From: an uncultured Bacilli bacterium
GTDB lineage: Bacteria; Bacillota_I; Bacilli_A; RF39; UBA660
NCBI GenBank assembly: GCA_947632065.1
Contig: CANRNO010000001.1
Location: forward strand, 5,803 to 69,802
DNA: 64,000 nt
Direction: 5' to 3'
This document shows, one piece after another, positions 2,561-29,106 of the stretch. The translations under genes and the position numbers were made by a program. The stretch's first letter is position 1. Each line of letters opens with the position of its first letter. The notes beneath the pieces were generated by a model. The model was given only the letters and a program-made list of their open reading frames with translations, did not search any database and was not told the DNA's origin.

Positions 2561-3669
2561 TAAAAGCCATGTATGTTCATATCCCATTTTGTAATAATAT
2601 CTGTTCTTATTGTGATTTCCCTAAAATATATTATCAAGAAGATTTAATAGATAAATATCTAGATACACTAAACTATGAATTAGAAAAAGTTTATAAAAAA
2701 GAAATGATAGATACTATTTATATAGGAGGAGGAACTCCTAGTAGTCTTTCTTTAAAACAGACAATAAAACTATTTGAAATATTAAAAAAAGTTAAGAAAA
2801 GTAAAAATATAGAATTCACAATAGAAGCTAATTTCGATTCCATAACAGAAGAAAAATTAGATTTATATAAAAAGTATGGTATTAATAGAATAAGTTTTGG
2901 TCTAGAAACTACTTGTAATAAACATCTAAAATTTTTAAATAGAACTCTTTCTAAAAAGAAAGTAAAACAAGTAATAGATTATGCAAACAAAATGGGGATA
3001 AAAAATATAAATATAGATTTAATATATGGAATGCCAAAAGAGAGGATAGATGAATTAGAACAAGATTTAGATTTTATCCTTTCACTAGATATAACTCATA
3101 TCTCAACTTATTCTCTAATTATAGAAGAGCATACTAAACTTTTTATAAATAATATAGAAAATATAGATGAAGATTTAGACTATAAGATGTATGAGATAAT
3201 TAGGAAAAAATTAAAAGAAAATAATTTTTATCAATATGAGATTAGTAATTTTTCTAAAAAAGGCTATGAAAGTAGACATAACTTAACTTACTGGAATAAT
3301 GAAAAGTATTATGGTATTGGTCTTGGAGCATCTTCTTACATTAATGACAGAAGAATTACTAATACTAGAAGTATAAATAAATACTTAGAAAAAAAGTTTA
3401 TTTATACAGAAGAAAAACTAACTATAGATGATAAATGTATTTACGAAATGATTTTAGGACTTAGAAAAATAAAAGGAATAAAAAAAGAAGAGTTTTTTAA
3501 AAAATATAATTGTCATATCGAAGAAAAGTTTGATATAATGAATTTGAAAGATAAAAAATTGTTAGAAGAGAATAATGGATATATATTTATACCACAAGAT
3601 AAATTATATATTCAAAATGAAATACTTTTATCATTCGTAGGAGGTAGTAGTAATGGAAAAAGAGAGTAA
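2557..3669 (+). CDS. hemW: Radical-SAM haem chaperone HemW (HemN-like, oxygen-independent coproporphyrinogen-III oxidase family)
   Basis: CxxxCxxC motif ([10 protein letters not shown]), GGGTPS motif, 370 aa; classical lepA-hemW synteny. Confidence 0.85.
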
Positions 3670-28274: not shown

Positions 28275-28303
28275 ACTTGAAGTTCCACTTTGGAATTTCA
28301 AGT
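28275..28303. other. 13-bp stem / 3-nt loop hairpin (acttgaagttcca ctt tggaatttcaagt)
   Basis: Near-perfect inverted repeat with one G-U wobble; no flanking U-run on either strand. Confidence 0.4.
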
Positions 28304-28515
28304 ATAAAAAAATAATGGTGGTGTAAGAAAACTTCCATATACTTTCACAAAACTATGAGAAAATATATATCAAATAATAAGATAAAAAAAGTAGTTTTTT
28401 CGCTTTAAGTGCTATTAAAACTTTTTAAATCTCTATAATATAAGTGAGGGGAAAATATAGACAAAATTTAGCATTAAAAATAAATAAACACATATAATAA
28501 GAGTTAGGAAAGAAA

Positions 28516-28557
28516 TTGACTTTCCTAGTTTAATGTGTTATATTATTAACACATTAA
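28516..28557 (+). promoter_or_regulatory. Promoter TTGACT-17-TGtTATATT overlapped by a perfect 11-bp inverted repeat (ttaatgtgtta-N6-taacacattaa) operator
   Basis: -35 at 28516-28521 and -10 at 28539-28544; the palindrome at 28530-28557 spans the -10 and the transcription start. Confidence 0.5.
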
Positions 28558-28575
28558 TTGATGATTAACTTGGTT

Positions 28576-28674
28576 GCATTGAGAAGAATTTTATTCGAGG
28601 AACATATTAGTCAACCTAAATAATCACATCATGAATAGCATTGAGAAGAATTTTATTCGAGAAACATATTAGTC
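28576..28674 (+). repeat. Two 37-nt direct repeats (gcattgagaagaattttattcgaGgaacatattagtc, one mismatch) separated by 25 nt, in the leader of the MazF-like gene
   Basis: Copies at 28576-28612 and 28638-28674; the reading frame differs between copies, so no peptide is conserved. Confidence 0.8.
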
Positions 28675-28685
28675 TATTCGTTGTT

Positions 28686-28721
28686 AGGAAACTCTATTAT
28701 AGGGTTTCCTTTTATTGTTTT
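28686..28721 (+). terminator. Intrinsic terminator / attenuator between the repeats and the toxin start
   Basis: aggaaac-tctattatagg-gtttcct hairpin followed by tttattgtttt; GGAGG RBS and the ATG follow immediately. Confidence 0.5.
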
Positions 28722-28731
28722 GGAGGTAATT

Positions 28732-29106
28732 ATGAAAAATGGAGAAATATTTTATATAGATTTTAAAGGAAATAGAGGATCCGAAATCAATAATATTCAC
28801 TTAGGAATTATATTTACTATTCCCAAAATTAATAATATGGTATTTTGTATACCACTTACTAGTCCGAAACAAAAACATTTTAAAAATATAAGTTCTTTTA
28901 ATAAACGTAATTATAAAGAATTAAAATATCAAAATTTAGTATATATAGATATATCCGATTCCGTTGCGCTACTAGATCAAATGAGAACTATATCTACTCA
29001 AAGATTACTAAGTTCGTATAATATTATTCTAGATAATAAGAATATCAACTTAATAAAAACAAAAGTTAATAAATATATTACAAATATTATGAAAAAAGAA
29101 AAATAG
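28732..29106 (+). CDS. MazF/PemK-family endoribonuclease toxin; no adjacent protein antitoxin
   Basis: GEIFYIDFKGNRGSEINNIHLGIIFT vs MazF GDLIWVDFDPTKGSEQAGHRPAVVLS, then ...CIPLTS...VALLDQMRTIS (MazF: VALADQVKSI); GGAGG RBS before the ATG at 28732 (the ORF-track start at 28681 lies inside the terminator). Confidence 0.75.
   Translation: MKNGEIFYIDFKGNRGSEINNIHLGIIFTIPKINNMVFCIPLTSPKQKHFKNISSFNKRNYKELKYQNLVYIDISDSVALLDQMRTISTQRLLSSYNIILDNKNINLIKTKVNKYITNIMKKEK

Follow-up and report, generated by a model that had tools for sequence, protein, structure and literature searches.

A MazF/PemK-family toxin gene coupled to tandem structured RNA units, a putative type III-like toxin-antitoxin family of gut Bacilli

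Introduction

How is a toxin of the MazF family held in check when no antitoxin gene stands beside it? The question is raised by a gene in a 64,000-nucleotide stretch of DNA from an uncultured Bacilli bacterium, referred to here as the window. MazF-fold toxins are also found in type III toxin-antitoxin loci, which are defined by repeats, a Rho-independent terminator, and a toxin gene, in that order (PMC5086642). The published repeats are 31-62 nt long and occur in 1.9-5.6 copies (PMC3401426). The literature surveyed recognises three type III families (ToxIN/AbiQ, CptIN, and TenpIN), whose toxins resemble MazF in fold and differ from it in sequence. The criteria of Blower 2012 and Goeders 2016 also include an RNA that neutralises the toxin by binding it, a toxin that processes the repeat array, and an antitoxin repeat folded as a pseudoknot.

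Results

Layout of the locus

All features of the locus lie on the forward strand of the window:

28493-28505, + strand, upstream element TATAATAAGAGTT, which reads TATAATAGAGTT in relatives and is complementary to the 5′ arm and loop of the terminator
28505-28527, + strand, inverted repeat TAGGAAAG-N7-CTTTCCTA, the 3′ arm containing the -35 sequence TTGACT (28516-28521)
28516-28544, + strand, sigma-A-type promoter-like site: TTGACT, 17 nt, TG-n-TATATT (10/12 matches, TG present)
28530-28540 and 28547-28557, + strand, inverted repeat with perfect 11-bp arms, TTAATGTGTTA / TAACACATTAA, on either side of the -10; candidate operator or RNA hairpin
28567-28622, + strand, RNA unit 1 (covariance model R1, 65.6 bits, E 1.7e-15)
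28623-28628, + strand, linker core TCACAT; in the alignment its semi-conserved motif xCATC runs on into the flank of unit 2
28629-28684, + strand, RNA unit 2 (covariance model R1, 68.1 bits, E 3.2e-16)
28686-28720, + strand, intrinsic terminator: hairpin 28686-28710, AGGAAACTCTAT-TAT-AGGGTTTCCT, 11 pairs, then TTTTATTGTTT
28722-28726, + strand, ribosome-binding site GGAGG, 5 nt 5′ of the ATG and kept in the alignment of relatives
28732-29106, + strand, MazF/PemK-family toxin gene, 124 aa, ATG start; predicted endoribonuclease

Much of this layout had been read from the letters alone. The original prediction named a sigma-A promoter overlapped by a perfect 11-bp inverted repeat, two 37-nt direct repeats differing at one base, a rho-independent hairpin with a U-tract ahead of the toxin, and a ribosome-binding site followed by the ATG. 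Each was recovered. The arms of the palindrome flank the -10 of the TTGACT-17-TATATT promoter, the repeats lie at 28576-28612 and 28638-28674 (one mismatch, 62 nt from start to start), the hairpin runs into a T-run, and GGAGG is in place. Two of its measurements needed correction. The spacer from the stop of the upstream gene (28225) to the toxin ATG, given as 455 bp, measures 506 bp. The supposedly non-repeated 25-nt spacer between the repeats is really the 3′ arm of the closing stem of unit 1, a short linker, and the 5′ arm of the closing stem of unit 2.

The promoter-like site is conserved in close and distant loci, with a -35 of TTGAyT, 17-nt spacing, and a TGnTAnnnT -10. The inverted repeat over the -35 has an equivalent in relatives (GAAAGTC..GACTTTC or GAAAATCAA..TTGATTTTC). 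In most loci the palindrome over the -10 persists with co-varying arms, and its mismatches are of the G.T type 28 times versus 5 of the A.C type. This bias hints that the palindrome region is perhaps transcribed itself, so transcription could start at 28545-28555 or upstream of 28505. Conservation of the upstream element extends to loci with toxins of roughly 50% identity and above, and in one locus (L035) the element and its partner in the terminator have both changed.

A scan of the region returned 3 terminator-like sites versus 0.1 expected, and the terminator hairpin was also recovered in the centroid fold. Of the loci examined, nearly all have a hairpin and T-run here; in L047 they are not evident. 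The terminator sequence differs in distant loci and does not overlap the closing stem of unit 2.

The toxin and its family

The 124-aa ORF, called MazF/PemK in the original prediction, was confirmed as such by Pfam PemK_toxin (PF02452; E 3.8e-10, 40.4 bits against a cut-off of 23.1) and by its predicted MazF-like fold. The AF2 model has a mean pLDDT of 91.3, and a Foldseek search with it returned Bacillus subtilis and Staphylococcus aureus MazF as best matches (TM 0.68-0.77; top entries 4mdx and 1ne8, TM 0.71-0.77). CptN (4rmo) ranked 38th, with TM 0.57/0.48. The type III models scored below their cut-offs, Pfam ToxN_toxin at 16.3 bits (cut-off 25) and the NCBIfam CptIN model at 17.7 bits (cut-off 90). 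Judged by sequence and predicted fold, the toxin is closer to Bacillus/Staphylococcus MazF than to ToxN or CptN.

The family conserves a Gly-Ser-Glu motif, Thr43, and a DSIALLDQxRTIS motif. Thr43 is nearly invariant and aligns with Thr52 of Escherichia coli MazF. His23 is invariant, and the aligned position in E. coli MazF is Arg29. Arg29 and Thr52 are catalytic residues of the E. coli enzyme. With a histidine in place of the arginine, the activity may differ from that of MazF. Overall, the conserved residues make the protein look like a working MazF relative. We found 130 homologues. The family is small and well separated, a search of 1.84 billion proteins bringing up 22 representatives at E<=1e-10, and NCBI names one of its members a type II PemK/MazF toxin. 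The PADLOC defence models had no match at the locus.

Search for a protein antitoxin

Neither the 506-bp upstream spacer nor the 62 bp downstream of the toxin holds an ORF of the MazE, PemI, AbrB, or RHH type, and the small ORFs near the toxin gave no Pfam match. ORFs of at least 25 aa within 700 nt of the toxin were also clustered across 53 loci. No conserved small ORF was found in them; the apparent clusters were antisense to the toxin or frame-inconsistent translations of the RNA units, whose hairpin P2 (below) changes in length between units by numbers that are not multiples of three. None of the loci compared has a MazE or PemI gene upstream of the toxin or otherwise adjacent to it. The absence of a nearby antitoxin ORF, as originally predicted, thus extends from the window to its relatives.

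An antisense, type I-like action of the RNA was considered and rejected. Duplexes between the units and the toxin mRNA had energies no better than those of shuffled units, and the sites were inconsistent.

The repeats as structured RNA

The two 37-nt repeats belong to two structured RNA units of about 55 nt. Each unit consists of a closing stem (P1), an asymmetric internal loop that is nearly invariant, and a hairpin (P2) that varies. In unit 1, P1 is formed by TGGTTGC / G(T)CAACC(T) around ATTGAGAA, the P2 hairpin GAAT-TTT-ATTC, and GAGGAACATATTA. In unit 2, P1 is GAATAGC / G(T)CTATTC, and the conserved loops and P2 hairpin are as in unit 1.

Pairing is kept across the family. In an alignment of 62 units, 95.3% of cells are paired versus 24-42% when the partner column is slid, with double changes at 8/10 pairs. 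With 101 units the figure is 94.6%, and compensatory double changes are seen at 9/10 pairs. RNAalifold gives the same P1 and P2, and G-U pairs are tolerated. Matches of at least 19 bits all fall on the toxin strand, bar one partial match of 20.3 bits on the minus strand (L197). On this comparative evidence the repeats are strand-specific structured RNA rather than DNA sites. The units show no sign of a pseudoknot, with the covariation covering the nested P1 and P2 and the loop nucleotides being too invariant to covary.

The internal loop is almost invariant, reading R-UUGUGAA on its 5′ side and GAGGRACAUAUWAG on its 3′ side; G17, A18, A48, U53, and A55 of the unit are among its invariant bases. 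Its variants (GGAACAU, GGGACAU, and UGAACUU) follow the toxin clades, and the most distant units have ACUU instead of ACAU.

The repeat greatly exceeds what chance would produce. Beyond units 1 and 2, the R1 model had no match in the 64-kb window, nor any in 510 kb of unrelated metagenomic DNA preselected by a loose pattern. A loose motif scan of metagenome contigs gave, among the matches listed, chance matches only. Rfam 15, which includes ToxI-type antitoxins and RF02913, had no relevant match in the leader of the window (E<=10), in ten related loci (E<=1), or in the loci with orphan units (E<=0.1). A motif of about 55 nt with strong covariation that stands outside Rfam would add a new class of structured RNA and a compact inhibitor of MazF-type nucleases.

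Conservation of the module

The pairing of these repeats with a MazF homologue, which the original prediction had proposed looking for in related genomes, is widespread. About 55 homologous loci from metagenome-assembled genomes of gut Bacilli/Tenericutes share the layout, the full module is also present in two IMG/VR viral contigs, and where a homologous locus includes enough upstream DNA the layout is nearly always there. Order, strand, and spacing of units and toxin are fixed while toxin identity falls from 98% to 40%. The neighbouring genes vary: RlmD and AddB in the window; serine recombinase, HNH, or endolysin-like genes or a tRNA elsewhere. Across these neighbourhoods, the comparisons indicate that the module is mobile and self-contained. 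Over 350 kb of locus sequence, the toxin family is the only one that the unit motif adjoins. Searches of GenBank phages with the toxin, with the leader, and with the orphan RNA region found no match.

An inverted element flanking the promoter and units had suggested an invertible promoter segment. The units have the same orientation in 57/57 loci, so there is no evidence of inversion.

Free-standing RNA units

Units also occur away from the toxin leader. In loci with 40-50% toxin identity, a third unit lies 3′ of the toxin stop, with its own promoter-like site and a strong terminator; in the locus checked (L051), no gene follows it on the same strand. Three phage contigs (L190, L178, and L179) carry one lone unit each, and no toxin homologue lies beside it in the 3-14 kb examined of these 17-33 kb contigs. 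The L190 unit is arranged as promoter, unit, and terminator. A weak toxin-like tblastn match in L178 was spurious, falling within a 796-aa tail-fibre-like ORF.

These arrangements are easier to reconcile with an RNA that acts in trans than with a cis leader. For ToxIN, phages are known to carry an antitoxin mimic, pseudo-ToxI (PMC5086642). The lone phage units suggest an arms race by RNA mimicry in poorly studied, uncultured lineages of gut Bacilli/Tenericutes.

Discussion

Proposed mechanism

Since a toxin without a protein antidote stands behind two folded RNA copies and a terminator, the RNA itself is probably the antidote. We consider it likely that the locus represents a toxin-antitoxin family of a new, type III-like kind, with a MazF-family toxin neutralised by RNA, the binding and neutralisation being what we infer from sequence. 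The originally predicted type III-like layout with a genuine MazF-family toxin is supported in that the module is conserved, its RNA covaries, and no protein antitoxin is conserved with it.

A single predicted promoter would transcribe the two tandem units. The intrinsic terminator would stop most transcripts, and read-through would give the mRNA of the endoribonuclease. With most transcripts ending at the terminator, the RNA units would be in excess over the toxin, bind it directly, and hold it inactive. The likely contact is the near-invariant single-stranded internal loop, which may sit in the RNA-binding groove of MazF as a substrate mimic. The toxin would be released whenever transcription shuts off or the RNA decays faster, for example once a phage infects or the element is lost. 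Within toxin ORFs, ACAU is not avoided (146 observed versus 158.7 expected, z = -1.6), so the idea that the ACAU of the loop is a cleavage motif gains no support from self-avoidance.

The fuller claim, to which we give an even chance, is of a fourth type III family. In it, MazE would be dispensed with and a MazF/PemK toxin held by a structured, non-pseudoknot RNA domain; the tandem units would be insulated by different closing stems, some members would have separately transcribed single-unit genes, and phages would carry lone units as anti-toxin mimics. Our literature search found no report pairing a MazF/PemK-family toxin with an RNA antitoxin, and in one preprint from 2026, on mining non-coding RNA by coevolution, the search counted zero occurrences of MazF or PemK. 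Genes of the family are now labelled type II toxins and hence look like "orphans".

Alternative explanations

The tandem units could instead form a leader that regulates in cis, serving as a sensor of the riboswitch kind or as a place for the toxin to bind or cut its own mRNA; such a leader would tune terminator read-through and leave the protein alone. A pair of aptamer-like domains ahead of an intrinsic terminator does resemble tandem riboswitch leaders, and the near-invariant loops are like ligand- or protein-binding pockets. In the close group, the upstream element complementary to the terminator 5′ arm, changed together with it in L035, could serve as an antiterminator if transcription starts further upstream. 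A riboswitch or other cis-regulatory leader, however, would be expected always to lie in the 5′ UTR of the gene it regulates and to have an expression platform that overlaps the aptamer, and here the terminator is separate from unit 2 and unrelated in sequence in distant loci. The third unit behind the toxin, which has a promoter-like site and a terminator to itself and in L051 is followed by no gene on that strand, the lone phage units with no toxin homologue nearby in the DNA examined, and the lack of any other adjoining gene family in 350 kb all speak against a leader, which we regard as unlikely. Position also counts against the protein-binding iterons that the original prediction offered as its own alternative. 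The direct repeats are close to the promoter, and separate palindromes overlap the -35 and -10, but the repeats lie downstream of the predicted promoter, inside the leader. Their strand specificity, tolerated G-U pairs, and P1 and P2 pairing kept by compensatory changes while sequence and length vary make DNA iterons or operators extremely improbable.

The remaining alternatives concern the link between RNA and protein. The toxin might be an orphan, or be neutralised by a protein encoded elsewhere, with the units a separate small RNA of mobile elements that merely travels along. The lone units of phage contigs and the type II name given by NCBI agree with this, and an unlinked antitoxin gene may exist elsewhere in the genome. 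It is nevertheless an improbable account of near-obligate linkage with fixed order, strand, and spacing in unrelated neighbourhoods down to 40% toxin identity, and of loop variants that track toxin clades. Such close co-evolution of RNA and protein would also suit a working ribonucleoprotein, in which the MazF-like protein matures the RNA or uses it for another function. The change of the catalytic Arg to His points the same way, since the enzyme may have narrowed to an RNA-specific activity. The units, however, have no variable guide-like segment, P2 varying as a stem-loop only, and we think a ribonucleoprotein very unlikely. The absence of a PADLOC match weighs neither for it nor against it. 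An RNA antitoxin acting in trans on the MazF-family protein is the reading we prefer.

Comparison with known systems

The RNA antitoxin proposed here has its conceptually nearest RNA precedent in the pemK RNA motif (Rfam RF02913), reportedly a conserved RNA near pemK toxin genes in Firmicutes described by Weinberg et al. in 2017. The Rfam 15 model of that motif matched neither the leader of the window at E<=10 nor ten related loci at E<=1.

With the type III systems ToxIN/AbiQ, CptIN, and TenpIN, the locus shares the gene order of promoter, tandem RNA repeats, Rho-independent terminator, and Kid/MazF-fold endoribonuclease toxin. It also shares with them the lack of a protein antitoxin and the occurrence in chromosomal and phage-related DNA (PMC3401426, PMC4627078, PMC5086642). 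The 62-nt period and two copies are within the published type III ranges; two repeats are also found in CptIN, and phage-borne look-alike RNAs recall the pseudo-ToxI of ToxIN (PMC5086642). The differences lie in the toxin and in the fold of the RNA. Type III toxins have about 150-170 aa versus 124 aa here, and by the thresholds used the toxin is not a homologue of ToxN/AbiQ, CptN, or TenpN, with which it has the fold superfamily in common. ToxI-type antitoxins are identical head-to-tail pseudoknot repeats, whereas the units here are closed domains of stem, internal loop, and hairpin; their identity is only partial, with 37-nt cores and differing closing stems. Some relatives, unlike type III loci, add a unit 3′ of the toxin that is predicted to be transcribed separately.

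From type II MazEF/PemIK systems the locus differs by having no adjacent MazE or PemI gene, and from E. coli MazF by the invariant His at the position of Arg29. It otherwise shares the toxin sequence family and predicted fold of these systems (B. subtilis EndoA/YdcE, S. aureus, and E. coli MazF). The Gly-Ser-Glu loop and active-site Thr are held in common with type II MazF, and the DS(V/I)xLL(E/D)Q(I/M)RT(I) motif with the Bacillus toxins. If our reading is right, RNA can block the active-site groove of MazF, and a toxin of MazF sequence under RNA control would show that a switch from protein to RNA antitoxin is possible within one toxin family. The locus would then be a direct evolutionary bridge from type II MazF toxins to the toxins of type III systems.

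The toxin locus and its leader

The leader of the toxin gene carries a pair of near-identical direct repeats between a predicted promoter and a terminator-like hairpin. The features of the locus are as follows.

Features of the toxin locus in the window
28225: stop of the upstream gene, an RlmD/TrmA-type methyltransferase
28516–28544: predicted promoter-like site, TTGACT-17-TATATT with an upstream TG
28530–28540 and 28547–28557: perfect 11-bp inverted repeat bracketing the −10 hexamer
28576–28612 and 28638–28674: pair of 37-nt direct repeats that differ at one position and start 62 nt apart, upstream of the toxin ORF
28686–28710: terminator-like hairpin, followed by a T-run, 3′ of the repeats
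28722–28726, + strand: RBS GGAGG, preceding the toxin ATG
28732–29106, + strand: toxin ORF, 124 aa, ATG start
29169: start of the downstream gene, an AddB-like PD-(D/E)XK nuclease

The promoter, inverted repeat, repeats, terminator, RBS and ORF that the original prediction placed at 28516–29106 were all found as described. The upstream spacer, given there as 455 bp, measures 506 bp. The 25-nt gap between the repeats is present, but it is not the non-repeated spacer it was taken for; it is structural and holds closing stems of the units described below. A scan of the region found three terminator-like sites, where shuffled sequence would give 0.1. At 28275–28303, about 50 nt 3′ of the methyltransferase gene, is a 13-bp hairpin, ACTTGAAGTTCCA-ctt-TGGAATTTCAAGT, which may be the terminator of that gene. 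Its Rfam matches are all sub-threshold (lysM-Prevotella, 25.7 bits; RsaE, 22.7 bits).

The repeats belong to a structured RNA

Species-representative genomes supplied 55 loci with toxin relatives, 98% to 40% identical; nearly all come from gut MAGs carrying the labels Bacilli, Tenericutes, Erysipelotrichaceae or Mycoplasma. The pairing of repeats with a MazF homolog recurs: where the upstream DNA is long enough, nearly all loci have the repeats about 160 and 100 nt 5′ of the start codon. The order of the leader is kept in the aligned loci: −35 inverted repeat, −10 palindrome, unit 1, short linker, unit 2, terminator hairpin with T-run, RBS and ATG.

Each 37-nt core is surrounded by a closing stem, P1. 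Its arms in unit 1 include TTGACT/AGTCAA, TTGGTT/AACCAA and TTGATT/AATCAA, and in unit 2 GAATAG/CTATTC, GGATAG/CTATCT and GGGTAG/CTACTC. Inside the core, the hairpin P2 varies (its forms include GAAC-TTT-GTTC, GAC-TTTG-GTC, GA-GAAA-TC and GC-TTCG-GC). The internal loop is near-invariant: its 5′ side reads R-UUGUGAA, and its 3′ side GAGGRACAUAUWAG followed by a bulged U. Across 62 units, 95.3% of cells are paired (24–42% in a slid-partner control), double changes occur at 8 of 10 pairs, and the covariation score is 0.603 against 0.243 shuffled, with none of 500 shuffles reaching 0.603. With 101 units aligned to the model, the values are 94.6% (control again 24–42%), 9 of 10 pairs, and 0.592 against 0.227. 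RNAalifold independently returned the same P1 and P2 helices.

Run on the 64-kb window, a covariance model trained on these units (R1) picks out the two units and no others, at 65.6 and 68.1 bits; it has no match in 510 kb of unrelated DNA. Matches of at least 19 bits lie on the toxin strand, the sole minus-strand match being a 20.3-bit partial one at locus L197. No Rfam 15 family covers the unit in the window leader, ten related loci or the orphan loci. The original prediction had allowed that the repeats could be DNA iterons. Covarying P1 and P2 helices, found also by RNAalifold, and strand-specific R1 matches rule this out, and with the Rfam result identify the element as a structured RNA not yet catalogued.

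One related locus, L031, has a single chimeric unit (2328–2382) whose P1 takes its 5′ arm from unit 1 and its 3′ arm from unit 2 and cannot pair; the toxin ORF there is intact. The chimera reflects either recombination between units or repeat collapse in MAG assembly.

The toxin is of the MazF family and has no protein antitoxin gene nearby

The toxin matches Pfam PemK_toxin (E 3.8e-10; 40.4 bits, above the 23.1 cut-off) and, weakly, ToxN_toxin (E 0.012). Its NCBIfam matches, to MazF and CptIN toxin models, are both sub-threshold. In a search with a profile of 81 family members, the nearest solved relatives are Bacillus PemK/MoxT/EndoA, the match spanning the motif DS(V/I)xLL(E/D)Q(I/M)RTI. 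An AlphaFold2 model (mean pLDDT 91.3) is most like RNA-bound B. subtilis MazF (4mdx; TM 0.71/0.76), YdcE and S. aureus MazF; CptN (4rmo) ranks 38 among the structural matches (TM 0.57/0.48). By sequence and predicted fold the toxin is thus a MazF-family protein, and the Pfam score and the model support its original naming as a MazF/PemK endoribonuclease. Arg29 and Thr52 are catalytic residues of E. coli MazF. In alignment, the nearly invariant Thr43 of the toxin family falls on Thr52, and the position of Arg29 is taken by an invariant His23. The family forms a small, well-separated group of 130 clusters at 90% identity; at 50% identity, only 22 representatives among 1.84 billion proteins reach E ≤ 1e-10.

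That no antitoxin ORF accompanies the toxin was borne out. Clustering of all ORFs of at least 25 aa within 700 nt of the toxin gave no genuine conserved small gene, small ORFs near the window toxin have no Pfam match, and length changes in P2 disrupt any reading frame across the units.

The module is mobile. It has RlmD/AddB flanks in the window and in one relative (L001); flanks elsewhere include large serine recombinases, HNH endonucleases, endolysin-like genes and tRNA genes, and the whole module is present in two IMG/VR viral contigs. One circular 1.2-Mb genome (JBAMOY010000001.1) carries a full three-unit module twice, at L051 and L052. The copies have upstream genes in common, including an M23-peptidase-like protein, with HNH and other phage-like genes near, which suggests two related prophages.

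The promoter region

The −10 palindrome (28530–28557 and equivalents) is kept in most loci and its arms change together. Its mismatches are biased toward the G.T type (28, against 5 of A.C type), which hints at a hairpin in + strand RNA. The −35, 17-nt spacing and −10 are also conserved there, which speaks for a promoter at this site. An upstream element lies 5′ of the promoter (28493–28505 in the window; TATAATAGAGTT in relatives with about 50% toxin identity or more). In this close group TATAATAGAGTT is the exact complement of the terminator 5′ arm and loop (AACTCTATTATA, window 28690–28701); in L035 both partners are changed. The element could be an antiterminator for transcripts starting further upstream, or a flanking inverted repeat. 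The segment has the same orientation in all loci, with no sign of inversion.

Units also occur apart from the toxin leader

Units outside the leader
L037, L041 and L043–L053, ~3400–3475; L056, 4419–4471; L057, 4420–4472: third unit just 3′ of the toxin stop, at loci with 40–50% toxin identity
L190, 2885–2938: lone unit (55.9 bits), with promoter-like site and terminator
L178, 5162–5223: lone unit (45.8 bits) adjoining terminase genes
L179, 3867–3928: lone unit (47.9 bits) adjoining lysis genes

The units might be a purely cis-acting leader of the toxin gene. Against this, the third units follow the toxin and have their own predicted promoter-like TTGTAT...TATAAT and strong terminator; in L051, the only locus with downstream ORFs listed, no gene follows on the same strand. 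Lone units, recovered by a pattern scan of viral contigs and an R1 filter, also argue against it: the DNA fetched from three IMG/VR phage contigs (L190, L178 and L179) holds no toxin homolog beside them. In L190 the next gene converges on the unit, and in L178 and L179 the unit is part of a conserved noncoding segment, some 130 nt long, that both contigs have. These lone units recall the phage pseudo-ToxI RNAs that neutralize ToxN of ToxIN (PMC5086642), and may be antitoxin mimics.

Just upstream of the L190 unit, at 2266–2375 and 2414–2677, are a skipping-rope RNA (RF02924; above threshold at 39.3 bits) and an ORF with a PBECR3 nuclease domain. The ORF ends at a stop codon, downstream of which a further reading frame apparently continues.

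A possible mechanism

In type III loci, repeats, a Rho-independent terminator and the toxin follow in order from one promoter, and the terminator sets how far antitoxin RNA exceeds toxin (PMC5086642). The layout here matches that definition, and repeat length and copy number lie inside the published ranges (PMC3401426). The window elements and conserved leader order support the anatomy originally predicted, a type III-like layout with a genuine MazF-family toxin. From this fit we propose that the units would inhibit the MazF-like protein by binding it, and consider such an RNA-antitoxin mechanism fairly probable.

The cleavage site is ACA for E. coli MazF and UACAU for B. subtilis MazF (PMC7781912). 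The conserved single-stranded GAGGRACAUAU of the unit resembles such substrates and, by analogy, may act as a substrate mimic. This idea is weakened by the toxin ORFs, which show no avoidance of ACAU (146 observed, 158.7 expected), and by the most distant units, which read ACUU in the loop. Compared with synonymous-codon shuffles, the toxin ORFs of 52 loci, including the window, are depleted in ACATC (3 observed against 21 expected), in GATAG (7 against 26.7) and in GATC, and an ACATC-like sequence is present in the linker between units. We regard the ACATC and GATAG depletion as weak leads. Antisense action is unlikely, because units and toxin mRNA have no consistent complementarity.

Comparison with known systems

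Full-text searches gave no report of an RNA antitoxin for a toxin of the MazF/PemK family. The nearest RNA precedent we take to be the pemK motif (RF02913), but the Rfam model of that motif has no match here. Lacking MazE, the locus does not qualify as a type II MazEF module, and it falls outside ToxIN, CptIN and TenpIN, because its toxin lacks the homology required for those families. The two units would suit one MazF dimer, an arrangement we liken to that of CptIN, whose complex contains two protein and two RNA molecules (PMC4627078).
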